A stretch of 64,000 nucleotides of DNA, taken from assembly GCF_024223415.1 (NCBI RefSeq), contig NZ_CP100500.1, one strand, 5' to 3'. Below, one piece after another: positions 15,520-23,940 of the stretch; position 1 is the stretch's first letter; each line of letters opens with the position of its first letter. The notes under the pieces are model-generated. The model was not told the DNA's origin and searched no databases. It saw nothing but the letters and a program-made list of their open reading frames with translations. The position numbers were made by a program, and so were the translations under genes. The stretch is from Escherichia coli (GTDB lineage: Bacteria > Pseudomonadota > Gammaproteobacteria > Enterobacterales > Enterobacteriaceae).

Positions 15520-16038
15520 TTAACCACCAAGACCAATCGCCGAGCGCACGCGGTCCGGGAAGACGTTTTTGCCGTCCTTGCGTTCGATGTGGTTCAGTAA
15601 ATCAATCTCCAGCACCGGACGGTCGTTAATGCTGAGTTTGTAGTAGGTACTCCTGACCGCATAGGTGTGAGACGTGACCTCACCCTGTTTTGCCTCCCCC
15701 GTATCAATTTCCGTCACGCGGCCGCGAAGCTCAATTTCATACAGGTCGCTCTGCTCTTCATCGTTGTAGTACTCACCGACAAAGCGCAGCAGCGTACCGT
15801 CGATCGTGCCGCCGTACTTAAGGAACAGTTCGCGGGTCGGCCCGCCCATGGTGAAACTCGCATCCAGCGCGCCGTCATCCAGACCAAGGTCGATATTCAC
15901 CGCGCCGGCCATACCACCACCGCGATAGGCTTCCGTTTTACGGGTCAGTTTGGGGGGCGTGAAGCCGGTCACCCTGCCAATCTGGTTCACCCCGTCAGTA
16001 AACAGCGTGAACACCCTGAGATTTTTTGGTACGGCCAT
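15520..16038 (-). CDS. Major tail tube protein (P2 gpFII-like)
   Basis: 172 aa, immediately downstream of sheath gene (TAATG overlap). Confidence 0.8.
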   Translation of the reverse strand: MAVPKNLRVFTLFTDGVNQIGRVTGFTPPKLTRKTEAYRGGGMAGAVNIDLGLDDGALDASFTMGGPTRELFLKYGGTIDGTLLRFVGEYYNDEEQSDLYEIELRGRVTEIDTGEAKQGEVTSHTYAVRSTYYKLSINDRPVLEIDLLNHIERKDGKNVFPDRVRSAIGLGG

Positions 16039-17321
16039 TAAGCACCTCCAAGCGTCGCAAATGCAGGACCAAAGAATTCATCAGTAAACGTCTGGTAAAG
16101 TTCCATATCCTCAAGCGGCGGAACGGGCGTGTACTTGTAGCGGATACGCACGCGTCCCTGACGAAGTTCCGTGGTGCTGTTATCCACCACGTCATACCAG
16201 CACTCCGCACCAATGAGACGTCCTGACGTAACCAGCGCATCCAGTTTTGCGCGAATTGCGCTTAACACGTCTTTCACATTAGCAGGGGTCAGCGGGGCAT
16301 CAATCGTTTCAAACTGCGCTTCCGCAATGGAATCAGCCAGCACCTGAGCGGTTCGCGTGTACACCTCAAAGATATACGCCTTCGTTTCCGGCGTACGGTT
16401 GCCCCAGAAGCGGAAACCGTTACGGCAAATGATGGTAGTGATTTCCTTGTTGTTGAGATTGTTGGCATCGCTGTCTTCGGACTGAAGGGACCAGAACACC
16501 GGGCTGGAAATACCCAGCACATTTGTTACCGGCACGTTGGACAGCGATTTATGCCAGCCCTGTTCGTGGTCAATACGTGCACGTAAACCGCAGGCGTACG
16601 CCGCAGCCGGGAAGACCTCATTAGCGCCGGATTTCGGGTTATAGGCGATGAAGTCAGGCCAGAGCAGCATAAGTTCGCGCTCGTTAAATCTGGCGCGGTA
16701 GCTGATTGCATCAGCGGGCTTCTTGCAGTTGTGACAGCCCGCGTAGACAAATGCGCGAAGTTTTTCTGCAATTACACACAGGGATTTTGTGACAGCTTCA
16801 GTATCCAGTCCGGGAGCTGCGATGATGCGCGGACGGTAACCGATGGCATCATCCTGTTCAGCTATCAGAAGTGCATACATACCGGTATAATTACCGTCGC
16901 CATCCGTGCCACCAATGACATACTGGTCCTGCGTTTTGTGTGGGTATACAGGATGTGCATCTTCAGACTCATCAATACCAAAAAATGCCCTGTCTTCAGG
17001 ATCCAGATGACCGAATGATGTAACTCCTGTATCCGGGGCGCCCTGAGAACTGGTATCAGGAACGCGCACCACAATCACCTTCGTGCTCACCTGGTCGGCG
17101 ACAGCCTTAAGCGATTTGTAAAGCGTCCCCTTTGTGCCGGCCTTACCCAGCACATCACTGACGCGGGTCAGCAGTGTGGGTTTGTTCAGCGGGAACAGAG
17201 TTTCATCCGCGTCATCTGCCGTAGCCACAATACCAATAACACTGGAATCCACATCATTAATGGCGGTGGCAAGGCCGGTACTTTCCCTTACGCGCGCACC
17301 ATGAAAGCGTGTTTCACTCAT
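16038..17321 (-). CDS. Tail sheath protein (P2 gpFI-like)
   Basis: 427 aa from ATG at 17321 (MSETRFHGARV...); track ORF extends further upstream without support. Confidence 0.8.
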   Translation of the reverse strand: MSETRFHGARVRESTGLATAINDVDSSVIGIVATADDADETLFPLNKPTLLTRVSDVLGKAGTKGTLYKSLKAVADQVSTKVIVVRVPDTSSQGAPDTGVTSFGHLDPEDRAFFGIDESEDAHPVYPHKTQDQYVIGGTDGDGNYTGMYALLIAEQDDAIGYRPRIIAAPGLDTEAVTKSLCVIAEKLRAFVYAGCHNCKKPADAISYRARFNERELMLLWPDFIAYNPKSGANEVFPAAAYACGLRARIDHEQGWHKSLSNVPVTNVLGISSPVFWSLQSEDSDANNLNNKEITTIICRNGFRFWGNRTPETKAYIFEVYTRTAQVLADSIAEAQFETIDAPLTPANVKDVLSAIRAKLDALVTSGRLIGAECWYDVVDNSTTELRQGRVRIRYKYTPVPPLEDMELYQTFTDEFFGPAFATLGGA

Positions 17322-17433
17322 ATGTTTCACCCTTGTCTGGCTGGTTGATTTTGCGTAATCATTACCCACACACGCGGTAATCTCACCCCTTTGATGTTGT
17401 CTCCTGACAGCGACAACAAAACAGCCATTCAAC

Positions 17434-17451
17434 GCCGCTGCGGTGCATGAA
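17434..17451 (-). promoter_or_regulatory. TGT-N12-ACA dyad, candidate Ogr-dependent late promoter element for the sheath operon
   Basis: tgtCTCCTGACAGCGaca, centre about 55 nt upstream of a transcript start that would give a roughly 65-nt leader to the sheath ATG. Confidence 0.35.
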
Positions 17452-17482
17452 ACCATTACAGAACGCACCAGGAGAGAACACC

Positions 17483-18574
17483 ATGAAAGAGCTGTCAGTT
17501 ACCGTTCCGTCACCGGATATCGACATCACCATCAACAACAACACACTGGCAAACCTCACAGAGCGACTCATGACGCTGACCCTGACGGATAACCGGGCCT
17601 TTGAGGCAGACCGCGTCACCCTCACCCTTGACGATACGGACGGGCAGTTACAGTTGCCACCACGTGGCGCACGCCTGAGAGTGATGATTGGCTGGCGAGG
17701 AGAATCACTGGTTAACAAGGGCACCTACGTCGTTGATGAGGTTGCGTGGGAAGGACCTCCAGATAAACTGATCATCACCGCCAGCAGCGCAGATTTTCGG
17801 GAAGAGTTCAACGTGAGGCGGGAGGTATCCTGGCACGACGTGACCGTAAAACAGGTTGTGTCAGCCATCGCTCACCGCTACGGCCTGAAGACACAGATAA
17901 GCGAAATCCTCATGGATATCGAAATTGACCACGCTGACCAGACCGAAGAGAGCGATATATCCTTCCTGACCCGCATGGCTGAAATGCTGGGTGCGATTGC
18001 CACCGTAAAAAACGGCAGCCTGTTATTCATTCTGCCGGGTGGCGGAACCGGGCCGGACGGAAGAGCCCTGCCTTCGTTCGCCATTACCCGCAGCAGCGGC
18101 GACAGTCACCGCTTTCGCATTGCTGACCGTGATGCGTATACGGGGGTCCGGGCGCACTGGCTCGATCTGAAGTTCGGGCAAAAGAAAAAAGTGAACGTGA
18201 AGCGACGCAGGGAAGCCGGGAAACAGAAACAGGAGAAGAGCAGCAGCCGGGAGGGTGATTACATGGAAGGCGCGGAAGGGAACGTCTACGTTCTGCGCAG
18301 GACTTACCAGAATGAAGAAACCGCACGACGTGCAGCTGCGGCAAAGTGGCAGGAGTTACAGCGGGGAGCAGCGGCATTCTCCATCACTCTGGCACGGGGT
18401 CGTGCCGACCTGTACCCCGAAATGCACGGCAGGGTAACAGGTTTTAAAAGCGAGGTGGACAATCAGGACTGGATTATTGCCAGGGTGGAGCACATCATAG
18501 ATGAAAGCGGCTTCACCACACAACTGGAGCTGGAAGCGAAAATCCCCGAATGGATAGCAGATTCAGGCGGATAA
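17483..18574 (+). CDS. Tail protein D (P2 gpD-like late control protein)
   Basis: ATG 17483 with GGAGAG upstream; 363 aa. Confidence 0.7.
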   Translation: MKELSVTVPSPDIDITINNNTLANLTERLMTLTLTDNRAFEADRVTLTLDDTDGQLQLPPRGARLRVMIGWRGESLVNKGTYVVDEVAWEGPPDKLIITASSADFREEFNVRREVSWHDVTVKQVVSAIAHRYGLKTQISEILMDIEIDHADQTEESDISFLTRMAEMLGAIATVKNGSLLFILPGGGTGPDGRALPSFAITRSSGDSHRFRIADRDAYTGVRAHWLDLKFGQKKKVNVKRRREAGKQKQEKSSSREGDYMEGAEGNVYVLRRTYQNEETARRAAAAKWQELQRGAAAFSITLARGRADLYPEMHGRVTGFKSEVDNQDWIIARVEHIIDESGFTTQLELEAKIPEWIADSGG

Positions 18575-18617
18575 AATTAAAATGAGCCATCTCCACTCAG
18601 CCAGATAAGGAGAAGCC

Positions 18618-18869
18618 ATGTTCCGTTGTCCCCTATGCGGTGCATCCGCACGTATCCGCACCAGTCGCAATGAAAATGATTCAGGCACAGTTCGCCTGAA
18701 GTACTACCAGTGCAATAACCTCGAATGCGGGATCGGCTTTACCACACTGGAGGGTTTTAACAAATTCACATCAAAACGCGCCCCGTCGCCGCAGGGTACA
18801 GAGCGGATACCGTGGGAAGATTTTCCGGGATCTCACAGGGGGAATACTCAGATTAATCTTGATATTTAA
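18618..18869 (+). CDS. ogr: Ogr/Delta-family zinc-finger late-gene activator
   Basis: 83 aa; CPLC...C(x4)C arrangement MFRCPLCGASARIRTSR...YYQCNNLECG; last gene before prophage junction. Confidence 0.75.
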   Translation: MFRCPLCGASARIRTSRNENDSGTVRLKYYQCNNLECGIGFTTLEGFNKFTSKRAPSPQGTERIPWEDFPGSHRGNTQINLDI

Positions 18870-18980
18870 GAACAATAATCAGGTTGAGAGGACATCATAA
18901 GGCAAGTAGATTAACGGCAGATACTTTCCCGCAACCACGGGCAAGTATTTAATTATCCATGATGAAATATGACCTAAATT

Positions 18981-19014
18981 GTTTTTTGCCCGCCGGAAAG
19001 CGGGCATTTTTTTA
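18981..19014 (+). terminator. Intrinsic terminator, candidate prophage attR core
   Basis: gcccgc cggaaa gcgggc hairpin flanked by T runs on both sides; same element recurs 7 more times downstream. Confidence 0.6.
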
Positions 19015-19227
19015 TTCTTTTGTGGTTATGGGGTCATCAGGAACCACGTGCAGATTATATTTTTGTTTTTTTGGCGTTCCTCCGGCAGCAACGAGTTCAT
19101 CAATAAGACACTGACACGCCTGAACATCCCGGGCATGTCTTAGTTTCACCTTTATTGATTTAACCTTATCCTCACCGGAGGAGAAATGCAGTTCAATCTC
19201 AATATCGTTTCTTCGGAACAATCTCAT
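19012..19227 (-). CDS. Hypothetical small protein (71 aa) in module M
   Basis: ATG at 19227 preceded by AGGGGG; intact only in this copy, truncated or degenerate in the other two M copies. Confidence 0.25.
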   Translation of the reverse strand: MRLFRRNDIEIELHFSSGEDKVKSIKVKLRHARDVQACQCLIDELVAAGGTPKKQKYNLHVVPDDPITTKE

Positions 19228-19398
19228 ACGCCCCCTGAATATATCAGAAATACTAGTATCGAAAAATGAGAAAACAGTTAGACAGGAGAAACATATTAAC
19301 ACAAATCATTTATACCTATAGATGAAATTATAATTTCATTCATGAATATGATAGATAACTATATTGTGAACAAAATGAAAAATGGCTAAATTAAAAAT

Positions 19399-19478
19399 GG
19401 GCATGGAGGAATGCCCGGTTATCAATATAATGTGACGTAGATCATTGTTTTGCCCGCCGGAGAGCGGGCATTTTTTTT
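19399..19478 (+). ncRNA. Candidate small RNA S1
   Basis: Promoter-like TTGTGA(19364)-N17-TAAATT(19387), about 80-nt unit with internal hairpin gggcatggaggaatgccc, ends in intrinsic terminator. Confidence 0.35.
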
Positions 19479-19678
19479 GCGCCTGCCATCGAGGCGCCTT
19501 CCCTGGCGCACACAAAGCAGCCCTGATTTTCCATGAAAACTTCAGGGTTGAGCTGCGGGCACAAAGTGAGTAGATTAGCTACGGGTACCTCCCCCTGACA
19601 ACAGGAAGGGTGTCCATTATCCATGATATACAAACGAAAAGTCTTGTTTTTTGCCCGCCGAAGCGCGGGCATTTTTTT
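19479..19678 (+). ncRNA. Candidate structured RNA U1 (about 200 nt)
   Basis: Bounded by two terminators; internal hairpins gcgcct..aggcgc, ccctga..tcaggg, ccttcc..ggaagg; 4 copies in window. Confidence 0.3.
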
Positions 19679-19723
19679 ATGCATCAGACAAGATACAGCC
19701 CACCCCAACTGACACCTGAAATA

Positions 19724-19752
19724 TTGCCGCAACAAAAAGAAACAGTTAAATT
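19724..19752 (+). promoter_or_regulatory. Sigma70-like promoter for hok1 transcript
   Basis: TTGCCG-N17-TAAATT, about 145 nt upstream of hok1 ATG. Confidence 0.4.
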
Positions 19753-19804
19753 ACGCGCGGGTGCCTTTCGGCTGATGGCCGGAGGGAAAACCTGAAGGCC
19801 GGAT

Positions 19805-20038
19805 GTGGAAAGGCCCCGGAAAACATTTCTGTTTAACCGAGGCCCTAACCGCATTACCTTGACAAGTGAAAGGTTAGCGCCTCTCCGGAAAAGGAGCAAG
19901 TGCTATGTCGCAAAAATCGCTTACGGCCATCACGTTCTGCGTGACGGCAATCCTCATCATCTGGATATTGCACGGTTCGCTGTGCGAAATACGGATGAGC
20001 TTCTGGGGAGCGGAGTTTGCGGCGTTCTTACAATGTAA
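19805..20038 (+). CDS. mok-like overlapping reading frame
   Basis: 77-codon frame overlapping hok1 in a different frame, as in hok/mok loci. Confidence 0.3.
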   Translation: MERPRKTFLFNRGPNRITLTSERLAPLRKRSKCYVAKIAYGHHVLRDGNPHHLDIARFAVRNTDELLGSGVCGVLTM

Positions 20039-20045
20039 GAAGTAA
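19905..20045 (+). CDS. Hok/Gef-family type I toxin (46 aa)
   Basis: MSQKSLTAITFCVTAILIIWILHGSLCEIRMSFWGAEFAAFLQCKK: TM helix plus SLCEI..AAFL.CK signature; AAGGAG 8 nt upstream. Confidence 0.6.
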   Translation: MSQKSLTAITFCVTAILIIWILHGSLCEIRMSFWGAEFAAFLQCKK

Positions 20046-20133
20046 GGAAACCGCGACGGGGGAGCAATCCCCCGTCAATCGGTTGCCAGGGTAAGGTCGA
20101 TAAGGCACCCTATCTCACAGACATGAACAAACA

Positions 20134-20167
20134 AACCCGCAGCATAAAAACTGCGGGTTTTCTTTTT
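20134..20167 (+). terminator. Intrinsic terminator after hok1
   Basis: cccgcag cataaaaa ctgcggg followed by ttttcttttt. Confidence 0.5.
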
Positions 20168-20571
20168 GGTGTCCTCACCGACTTGAAACAGTGATCAGAC
20201 TATAAGACAAAGCCCGCAATGTTGCGGGCTTACTCTACCTCTCGAAAATGTGGTCACTGCGTGGACATACGCTGATACAAATCCTTTATATCAATAAATT
20301 AAATCTTTGTTTTTTTCATCAACAATGATTTAACCTTATCCTCACCGGAGGAGAAATGCAGTTCAATCTCAATATCGTTTCTGTGGAACAGCCTCATAAG
20401 ACAACCTCCTGAATTCATCAGAAACACAGTCAACTGAAAACCAGAAAGCAGACAAACAGTGGACACACATTAATACAAATCATTTATACCTATAGATGAA
20501 ATTGCAGTTTCATCTATAACATGACAGGTAACAATATTGTGAAAAAACTCAAAACTCGTTAGATTAAAGAC

Positions 20572-20651
20572 GGACAGAGCAATGCTACTTTATCAATAAC
20601 ATGTAACCTGTACTTCCTTATTTTGCCCGCCGAAGCACGGGCATTTTTTTT
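20572..20651 (+). ncRNA. Candidate small RNA S2
   Basis: TTGTGA(20537)-N17-TAGATT(20560), terminator at 20625-20651; central region differs from S1. Confidence 0.3.
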
Positions 20652-20849
20652 GCGCCTGCCATCGAGGCGCCTTCCCTGGCGCACACAAAGCAGCCCTGAT
20701 TTTCCATGAAAACTTCAGGGTTGAGCCAAAAGCACAAAGACAGTAGATTAACCACGGGTGCCTTCCACCTGACAACAGGAAGGGTGTCCAGTATCAATGA
20801 CAGACAACTCACATTGCTGTTTTGCCCGCCGGAAAGCGGGCATTTTTTT
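20652..20849 (+). ncRNA. Candidate structured RNA U2
   Basis: Copy of U unit ending in terminator 20821-20849. Confidence 0.3.
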
Positions 20850-21219
20850 ATTCTTTTGTGGTTATTGGGTCATCAGGAACAACATGCAGATTATGCTTTG
20901 ATTTTTTTGGTGTTATTACAGCAGCAACGAGTTTATTAATAAGACACTGACATGCCTGAACATCCCTGACATATCATAATATCACTTTATTTTTTTAGCT
21001 TGTCCTTTCTGGAGCAGAAATATCTCAACATCGTTTCTGTGGAACAACCTCATTTGCCCTTGAATGTATCATAAATATCAGCATCGGAAAACCAACAGCA
21101 ATACAGAAGAAACATGTTAATGCAAATCACTTATACCTATAGATGAAATTACAGTTTTGTTCATAAATATGATAAGTAACTATATTGTGAATAAAATGAA
21201 AACTAGCTAAATTAAACGT

Positions 21220-21300
21220 GGGCATGGTGGAATGCCTCGTAATCAATAATACATGATCCGTACTTCCTTGTTTTGCCCGCCGGAAAGCGGGCATTTTTTT
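21220..21300 (+). ncRNA. Candidate small RNA S3
   Basis: TTGTGA(21185)-N17-TAAATT(21208), hairpin gggcatggtggaatgcc, terminator to 21300. Confidence 0.3.
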
Positions 21301-21497
21301 GGCGGTTACCATCGCCTCACCTTCCTGGTTCACATGAAGCAACCCTGATTTTCCATGAAAACTTCAGGGTTGAGACAAAAGCACAAAGACAGTAGATTAA
21401 CCACGGGTACCTTCCACCTGACAACAGGAAGGCTGTCCAGTATCAATGACAGACAACTCACATTGCTGTTTTGCCCGCCGGAAAGCGGGCTTTTTTT
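21301..21497 (+). ncRNA. Candidate structured RNA U3
   Basis: Copy of U unit, terminator 21469-21497. Confidence 0.3.
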
Positions 21498-21698
21498 GGC
21501 AGTTATCATAGCCGCACCTTCCTGGCACATATGAAGCAACCCTGATTTTCCATGAAAACTTCAGGGTTGAGACAAAAGCACAAAAACAGTAGATTAACCA
21601 CGGGTGCCTGCCACCTGACAACAGGAAGGGTGTCCATTATCCATGATATACAAACGAAAAGTCTTGTCTTTTGCCCGCCAAAGCGCGGGCATTTTTTT
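21498..21698 (+). ncRNA. Candidate structured RNA U4 (hok-associated subtype)
   Basis: Copy of U unit with the same 3' end as U1, terminator 21671-21698. Confidence 0.3.
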
Positions 21699-21909
21699 AT
21701 GCATCAGACAAGATACAGCCCACCCCAACTGACACCTGAAATATTGCCGCAACAAAAAGAAACGGGTGCCTTTCGGCTGATGGCCGGAGGGAAAACCTGA
21801 AGGCCGGATGTGGAAAGGCCCCGGAAAACATCTGTGTTTAACCGAGGCCTGACCCTTCCTACCGTGACAAGTGGAAGGTTAGCGCCTCTTTGTAAAAGGA
21901 GCAAGCGCT

Positions 21910-22050
21910 ATACCGCAAAAAACGATTATTGTTGGCATTTTATGCCTGACAATAACCCTGGTCATCTGGATGGTCCACGATTCGTTATGTGAATTCAGCT
22001 TTGATATCTGGGGAGCGCGTTTTGCGGCGTTCTTGCAGTGTAAACCGTAA
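21910..22050 (+). pseudogene. Hok-family toxin remnant: start codon ATA, promoter -10 deleted
   Basis: Frame encodes PQKTIIVGILCLTITLVIWMVHDSLCEFSFDIWGARFAAFLQCKP after AAGGAG, but first codon is ATA and an in-frame TAG lies 10 codons upstream. Confidence 0.55.
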
Positions 22051-22200
22051 GAAACCGCAGCGGGGGAGAAATTCCCCGCTATCCGGTTGTTGGGGTGGGC
22101 CGATATGGCGCCCTTTCCCTGTAGAGACAAAACAAAAAACCAGATTTGCCCGCCATTGAGAGGGCTTTTTTGTCACCCTCACCAGTGAGGGCATCATCAT

Positions 22201-22428
22201 TCAGAGGCGCGTAAGCCACCCGGCGTTAACATCCTGCCTGTCAACCCTGGCCGCAGAGTCTGAACGGCAGGTACCGGAAGGAGTACCAAAAACATCCCTG
22301 ACAAGTTCCGCCACCTTCCCGATATCATCAGGTGTCACATTCCTCACCTCGGCAGTGATCCGTGGCGTACCATCATCGTTAACAAGAGTGGCTTTAAAGC
22401 TGGTGCGAAGGGAAAACAACATCAACAT
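22201..22428 (-). CDS. Hypothetical protein (75 aa)
   Basis: ORF only; no recognisable motif. Confidence 0.2.
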   Translation of the reverse strand: MLMLFSLRTSFKATLVNDDGTPRITAEVRNVTPDDIGKVAELVRDVFGTPSGTCRSDSAARVDRQDVNAGWLTRL

Positions 22429-22626
22429 CCCCTCCCTTTGGTTCGTTGCACTGACGGCACGACACCATCAGGAAAAAGAAAAGCCCACAACGTCAGTATT
22501 GTGGACTTTTTTCTTCAAAGATGGACATTATCTGGACACATGAAAATAAAATCCATTTATTTTCATATAGTTAAGTACCATGCAAAAGCGCCCGCAGGCG
22601 CTTTTTAGATTCAGAAAAATTAGGTA

Positions 22627-23940
<1,314 letters not shown>

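Follow-up and report, generated by a model that had tools for sequence, protein, structure and literature searches.

The second hok gene (hok2) of a P2/P88-like prophage in Escherichia coli is, with a probability that we put at roughly 0.8, a toxin pseudogene, recently inactivated and still decaying, of a hok/sok-type module. Two derived lesions, a 15-bp deletion that removed the promoter -10 box and a change of the start codon from ATG to ATA, are fixed at the locus, and further lesions have been added in individual lineages. The window referred to throughout is the whole stretch of DNA analysed, 64,000 nt of E. coli sequence (NCBI RefSeq assembly GCF_024223415.1, contig NZ_CP100500.1).

Prophage context of the two hok modules

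P2-like tail sheath, gpD and ogr genes are found at 16038-18869, and the prophage end is flanked in the window by serS (22627-23919, minus strand), followed by rarA and lolA. The 3.7 kb between ogr and serS contains two hok-type modules and five copies of a repeat of 175-200 nt, an arrangement that is present in full in 25 of 5,426 complete E. coli genomes. The prophages at copA (L004-L011) and at zapB-glpF (strain SCU-115, L015) are homologous to the window past hok2 as far as 22549-22606; both modules, lying as they do in the interval from ogr to the attachment site, are therefore cargo of the P2/P88-like prophage adjoining serS. Similar modules are annotated as 'MokW-like host killing' in isolates of P88-like peduoviruses and Stx phages. 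The coding sequences of hok1 and hok2 are about 70% identical in a pairwise alignment, and on this comparison the two are divergent modules with a common conserved promoter and 5' leader rather than a simple duplicate pair.

The repeat occurs on the plus strand at 18840-19030, 19478-19690, 20651-20863, 21300-21512 and 21497-21710, two of the copies standing directly 5' of the hok promoters. Each copy has three conserved hairpins, with a few compensatory pairs, and ends in a strong terminator (GCCCGCC-N4-6-GCGGGC followed by T7). A search of the repeats against Rfam returned only weak matches driven by the terminator (RyhB and AgvB, about 24 bits). The repeats may be sRNA genes or phage regulatory repeats; they do act as recombination substrates (see below), and hok1 and hok2 are placed between them in the prophage cargo. 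Two small open reading frames on the minus strand, at 22201-22428 (75 aa) and 19087-19302 (71 aa), are conserved features of these P2-like prophage ends, and neither matches a Pfam family; the 71-aa frame is repeated in truncated form at 20299-20466.

The promoter deletion

The module upstream of hok2 is intact and was used for comparison:

19724-20160, plus strand: hok1/sok1, intact comparison module, with promoter TTGCCG-17-TAAATT, +1 at 19759, mok1 at 19805-20038, hok1 at 19905-20045, fbi at 20103-20111 and terminator at 20133-20160

Its hok1 gene has a 46-codon frame beginning at ATG 19905 and is annotated in RefSeq as a Hok/Gef family protein. A working module of this kind has a weak promoter, TTGCxx-17-TAAATT, giving an mRNA of about 400 nt in which the 5' tac is locked to the 3' fbi; after trimming of the 3' end, translation of mok opens the hok ribosome-binding site unless Sok RNA has bound first.

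The corresponding region 5' of hok2 contains the following features:

21672-21698, plus strand: terminator hairpin TGCCCGCC-AAAG-CGCGGGCA followed by T7 (scan site 21672-21691 and the T run), ending the repeat element 5' of hok2 and kept in all five repeat copies
21744-21749, plus strand: retained hok2 -35 TTGCCG, aligned to TTGCCG 19724-19729 of hok1; TTGCxx is kept in the divergent modules of L009 and strain 154
21763-21764, plus strand: junction of the 15-bp deletion, which took AGTTAAATTACGCGC, that is the -10 hexamer TAAATT and the six bases preceding +1; the junction now reads GCAACAAAAAGAAACGGGTGCC

The first-pass annotation had reported that a 15-bp stretch with the -10 TAAATT is absent near 21763 and had proposed a pairwise alignment of the two copies. 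The alignment bears this out, the stretch AGTTAAATTACGCGC, at 19744-19758 in hok1, being missing between 21763 and 21764 as a single gap. The sequences flanking the gap are identical in the two modules for about 125 bases upstream (2 mismatches in about 190) and for 69 bases downstream, and by this count the agreement far exceeds chance. The Rfam model RF01794 (sok/hok leader) gave full-length matches at 19759-19918 (46.2 bits) and 21764-21921 (48.1 bits, E 7e-9), with E values of about 1e-8 and scores that do not reach the gathering score of 59. As the alignment to the model starts directly after the gap, the deleted bases would be positions -15 to -1 of the hok mRNA.

A relaxed sigma-70 scan upstream of hok1 gave exactly one candidate, TTGCCG at 19724-19729 and TAAATT at 19747-19752 with a 17-nt spacer (8/12 matches), and this TAAATT ends 6 nt 5' of +1. 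The same scan upstream of hok2 gave no promoter candidate and no substitute. With a stricter threshold (9/12) the hok promoter was called in neither copy, because the match in hok1 is only 8/12. Loss of the -10 box would leave almost no hok2 mRNA. This agrees with the plasmid R1 hok gene, in which single changes in the -10 box gave no transcription (PMC9841398), but the hok1-type promoter matches the consensus at only 8 of 12 positions and the predicted loss of transcription comes from sequence. The terminator upstream of hok2 should limit read-through into the gene.

The strongest support for the promoter assignment is its conservation across modules. TTGCxx-17-TAAATT in register and the ATG are kept in all eight modules of the copA-site prophages (L004-L011) and in all three tandem modules of strain 154; both hexamers and the 17-nt spacing are unchanged even in L009 and strain 154, whose spacer and upstream sequences are divergent. 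As all intact relatives carry the 15 bp and the ATG, both hok2 lesions are derived.

Start codon and reading frame

The features that bear on translation of hok2 are:

21880-21882, plus strand: in-frame TAG 5' of the hok2 frame, which excludes an N-terminally extended start
21896-21901, plus strand: retained hok2 Shine-Dalgarno AAGGAG, 8 nt 5' of the ATA
21910-22050, plus strand: hok2 frame, 46 codons and stop, with ATA and not ATG as codon 1 (G>A at 21912)

In the pairwise alignment ATA 21910-21912 is opposite ATG 19905-19907 of hok1. The 46-codon frame, IPQKTIIVGILCLTITLVIWMVHDSLCEFSFDIWGARFAAFLQCKP, ends at TAA 22048-22050, and the first in-frame ATG, GTG or TTG downstream is ATG 21970, codon 21. 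Both frames encode Hok/Gef-family toxin peptides: against Pfam HOK_GEF (PF01848, cut-off 22 bits) hok2 scored 22.6 bits with M substituted for I1, and hok1 29.0 bits. The earlier description of hok2 as a Hok-like frame with its Shine-Dalgarno kept, ATA as first codon and a TAG upstream is thus confirmed by the sequence and the alignment.

A dinucleotide change from ATGTCG to ATACCG was considered and rejected, ATG CCG being a natural N-terminus in the strain 154 modules. These have the closest N-termini and begin ATG CCG CAA AAA ACG, so that a single G>A transition would give the ATA CCG of hok2. The transition and the 15-bp deletion are 147 bp apart and are separate lesions, as the first-pass annotation had proposed in describing two independent lesions in one hok gene; both are derived.

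On any RNA still made, ATA would allow initiation at no more than about 1-2% of the normal level. In E. coli reporters the yield with AUA is 0.02-3% of that with AUG (bioRxiv 10.1101/063800), and mutations in the second or third position of the R1 hok start codon abolish toxicity (PMC9841398). The two hok2 lesions, in the -10 box and in the third position of the start codon, match both of these R1 loss-of-toxicity classes. Taken together they would turn the toxin effectively off at transcription and at translation.

What remains of the module

Apart from the two lesions, the architecture of the module is preserved:

21764-22113, plus strand: body of the former hok2 mRNA, with an RF01794 match, a predicted fold that joins its ends, and tac/fbi that co-vary between modules
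21764-21770 and 22107-22113, plus strand: hok2 tac GGGUGCC, which pairs with fbi GGCGCCC
21810-21992, plus strand: mok2, the overlapping leader frame, GTG start, 60 codons, intact; position and start as in mok1 19805-20038
21806-21870, minus strand: predicted Sok2 antisense RNA, with a single-stranded 5' tail, a long hairpin and a CCUUUCC tail; ends inferred
21876-21904, minus strand: sok2 promoter, -35 TTGCTC at 21904-21899, 17-nt spacer, -10 TAACCT at 21881-21876; hexamers identical to those of hok1 and of the intact outgroup modules

Minimum-free-energy folds of the predicted mRNAs join the 5' and 3' ends (z = -8.1 for hok1 and -5.7 for hok2), and the tac-fbi fold-back pairing is further borne out by co-variation: GGGUGCCUU/AAGGCACCC in hok1, GGGCGCC/GGCGCCC in L009, and a G.U wobble in hok2 and L004. 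The idea that the G.U pair of this chimeric tac/fbi makes hok2 intrinsically leaky was rejected, as intact L004-type modules pair identically. In both modules a GTG-initiated mok frame overlaps the hok Shine-Dalgarno and start. An antisense Sok gene with its own promoter is also predicted in each, TTGCTC-17-TAACCT being found on the minus strand in all modules. The sok2 promoter is in a position which we take to correspond to that of the R1 sok promoter. The predicted Sok2 fold (-23.4 kcal/mol) has the architecture of Sok1 and of L004 Sok, and the apparently intact promoter suggests that Sok2 would still be expressed. The 5' recognition tails of the two Sok RNAs are unlike at 8 positions, and Sok1 and Sok2 probably differ in specificity.

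The mok frame, Shine-Dalgarno, tac/fbi and sok2 promoter are all retained, and inactivation is therefore recent when set against the age of divergence within the module family.

Distribution of the doubly damaged allele

hok2 is present in 26 of 5,426 complete E. coli genomes (about 0.5%). All 26 match at least 99.4% over 21735-21965 and 21900-22135 (at least 99.6% over 21735-21965), and the next best matches are below 90% identity, except for one record at 90-95%. The comparison across strains that the first-pass annotation had called for found both lesions in every one of the 26 genomes; indeed ATA and the deletion are seen together in every hok2-type locus read as DNA, in complete genomes, several drafts and one metagenome contig.

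No allele with a single lesion was found among the 26 complete genomes. Of two scans of viral contigs for one, the first gave only a hok1-type match and the second no match, and metagenomes yielded one hok2 contig, which has both lesions and W34*. The sole ATG-bearing hok2 allele (L029, a gene-conversion mosaic) retains the deletion and gives no order of events. An apparent ATG allele adjacent to serS (P0001) proved to be ATA at the DNA level, the annotator having translated ATA as M, and a call of an ATT start for hok2 was due only to truncation at a contig end.

Secondary lesions and recombinants

The doubly damaged allele has probably spread with the prophage and is now decaying separately in different lineages. 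Two nonsense mutations segregate at the locus: 21941 T>G (TTA to TGA, L11*) in DG341-type genomes, F374 and 23 draft contigs, and 22011 G>A (TGG to TGA, W34*) in 24A16CRGN010, GF4, the metagenome contig and 176 draft contigs. In addition, 21766 G>A, at mRNA position +3, is found in NRZ14408 (two independent assemblies), and 21803 G>A, in the mok Shine-Dalgarno, in 24A16CRGN010. Strain GF4 (L033 2677-4015) has, besides the deletion, ATA and W34*, an IS421 element (IS4 family) in the hok2 3' UTR hairpin, with a 13-bp target duplication at 22064-22076. This insertion is reminiscent of the IS elements downstream of K-12 hok genes.

The SCU-115 prophage at zapB-glpF has no hok1, and the dead hok2 is its single hok module. 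Comparison of L015 2540-3200 with window positions 19100-19760 and 20270-20930 showed that one hybrid repeat replaces the series repeat-hok1-repeat; its left part is like the copy before hok1 and its right part like the copy after hok1, with the crossover in an identical stretch of about 90 nt. This clean hybrid indicates that hok1/sok1 was gained or lost by homologous recombination between repeats. A different exchange is seen in L029 (GCA_020594835.1, 1130-1620), where a hok1-type conversion tract of about 70 nt (window 21855-21925) restores ATG TCG and alters the Sok tail region, and the 15-bp promoter deletion is kept.

Strain 154 (E. coli O22:H8; L018 1706-2791) has, next to serS, three tandem and apparently intact hok modules with a period of 472 nt. 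All three carry a TAAATT promoter of their own and differ in their Sok-target regions, which suggests that hok modules of differing antisense specificity accumulate beside serS.

Comparison with known systems

The reference type I system, hok/sok (parB) of plasmid R1, shares with the modules described here a Hok/Gef peptide of about 50 aa, an overlapping mok, a weak hok promoter, tac-fbi pairing and an antisense Sok promoter that overlaps the hok Shine-Dalgarno region; the Rfam leader match here runs from +1. In contrast to R1, the modules are on a P2-like prophage and not on a plasmid, the peptide has 46 aa against 52 and shows only distant similarity, the Rfam scores are 46-48 bits against a gathering score of 59, and hok2 is without the -10 box and ATG. 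An expressible toxin, with promoter and canonical start, is predicted for hok1 but not for hok2, which is therefore best classed as a pseudogene relic of the family and not as a working member.

Pedersen and Gerdes reportedly described in 1999 that the chromosomal hok loci of E. coli K-12 (hokA-E) are inactivated by IS elements, point mutations and rearrangement. hok2 resembles these loci in being chromosomal, with a dead toxin side and much of the regulatory architecture left, and in GF4 an IS lies just 3' of the hok frame. It differs in being another locus and allele, in having a promoter microdeletion and loss of the start codon as its primary lesions, and in travelling with a prophage in about 0.5% of complete genomes.

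Cargo of this kind is also carried by the P88-like peduoviruses (P88, 500465-2 and Chuche) and Stx phages, at 79-84% nucleotide identity and, in the P2-like genomes, just 3' of an ogr-type late regulator. hok1 and L004-L011 are intact members of this 'MokW-like' class and hok2 is a defective version; unlike the phage modules, the present prophage has two modules separated by the 175-200-nt repeats. hok2 thus adds a well-documented case to the known inactivated hok loci and no new mechanism.

Drift, selection and other explanations

Whether drift or selection fixed the two lesions has to be judged indirectly. The first-pass annotation had taken the pair as a sign of selection against expression of this copy beside an intact paralogue. 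The two lesions are real, but in SCU-115 hok2 is damaged in the absence of hok1, so that an intact neighbour is not required. A screen of R1 identified 162 loss-of-function single substitutions at 117 positions (PMC9841398), or by our calculation about 13% of the substitutions that a hok module could undergo. The divergence of hok2 from the intact modules nearest to it is about 12%. At this rate and divergence a second lesion in a module that is already dead is expected under drift, and neutral decay accounts for the two lesions as well as selection does.

Silencing driven by selection would require that Hok2 was harmful, that each leaky lesion was fixed because it lowered the amount of toxin, and that the later nonsense codons were still advantageous. 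We consider this possible but rather unlikely. Promoter and start-codon mutations are indeed what survives removal of Sok in R1 (PMC9841398), and the 0.02-3% of initiation retained by AUA (bioRxiv 10.1101/063800) would leave something for further lesions to remove. In the complete genomes every variant within the module is potentially damaging (two nonsense mutations, one IS, mRNA +3 and the mok Shine-Dalgarno). Nonsense mutations make up 2 of the 6 known non-synonymous hok2 variants against an expected 6% (p = 0.046), a marginal value from a small test on a list of variants that is biased by the annotators' calls. Each nonsense allele is found in many contigs (176 and 23) and each missense allele in one only, but these frequencies reflect clonal expansion. 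Given the 13% share, extra lesions would build up under drift in any case. Intact L004-type modules with the same chimeric tac/fbi persist (119 contigs), so that hok2 is not marked out as over-toxic, and the dead allele of SCU-115 has no hok1 beside it.

A related proposal, which we regard as unlikely, is that hok2 is still not fully silent: read-through or cryptic transcripts, translated with about 1% initiation at AUA, would be costly, hence the repeated independent knock-outs, or, as a variant, Sok2 would be retained as an orphan antitoxin that acts on incoming modules of a related kind. Initiation at ATA is low but not nil, and some mRNA could come from read-through or from a cryptic promoter; the damaging variants that segregate could likewise mean that the allele has yet to become fully silent. 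These points count against the pseudogene assignment.

The fuller form of the antitoxin proposal, in which the locus is kept because orphan Sok2 neutralises hok mRNAs of the same class from competing phages or plasmids (anti-addiction), seems to us quite improbable. The sok2 promoter hexamers and spacing are as in intact modules, Sok2 is predicted to fold like Sok1, its tail region resembles that of the intact strain 154 modules, and no variant was seen in 21806-21905 in any ATA allele read. With so few SNPs, however, zero variants in 100 nt would be expected by chance (estimated p about 0.2), and the Sok2 RNA itself is a prediction. Chromosomal Sok RNAs show no cross-talk to R1 hok (Le Rhun et al., PMC9841398), and the 8 differences between the recognition tails of Sok2 and Sok1 argue in the same direction.

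It is very improbable that hok2 is a working but attenuated toxin gene, translated from AUA or an internal start on a transcript from another promoter. In most carriers no stop interrupts the 46-codon frame, the Shine-Dalgarno is preserved, and GenBank records annotated by PGAP (e.g. CP033635.1 and CP080260.1) call a 46-aa Hok/Gef family protein starting at ATA, or at CTG after L11*. These calls weigh against the pseudogene assignment, but the RefSeq versions of the same records leave the locus unannotated, with no pseudogene flag. With M as its first residue, the hok2 protein (P0004) has entries in 1,668 assembly blocks, and in the contigs read this M rests on an ATA start in GenBank. Named members of the hok2 cluster come from NCBI sources only (the source of P0004 is unlisted), whereas Logan, ENA and JGI data include calls of hok1 relatives as well; we read this source bias as reflecting a requirement of de novo gene callers for a canonical start codon. 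There is no promoter candidate and a terminator lies upstream, third-position start mutants of R1 hok lose toxicity (PMC9841398), nonsense and IS alleles are common, and a start at the ATG of codon 21 would remove the transmembrane helix.

That ATA or the deletion junction is a sequencing or assembly artefact, such as the error at 21912 against which the first-pass annotation had cautioned, has a negligible probability, the sequences being identical in 26/26 complete genomes from independent projects, in drafts and in the metagenome contig.

Conclusions

hok2 is mainly a clean case for annotation: a pseudogene label is warranted, with sok apparently intact. It is also a natural example of how chromosomal and prophage hok toxins are repeatedly disabled, with two fixed lesions followed by lineage-specific nonsense mutations and an IS, and of how the hok modules at the ends of P2-like prophages are shuffled by recombination between short repeats. 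If hok2 were instead still leaky, its lesions would document how selection acted step by step against a type I toxin in nature, and if the excess of knock-outs holds in a phylogenetic count, the locus could serve to quantify how strongly leaky type I toxins are selected against in natural populations.
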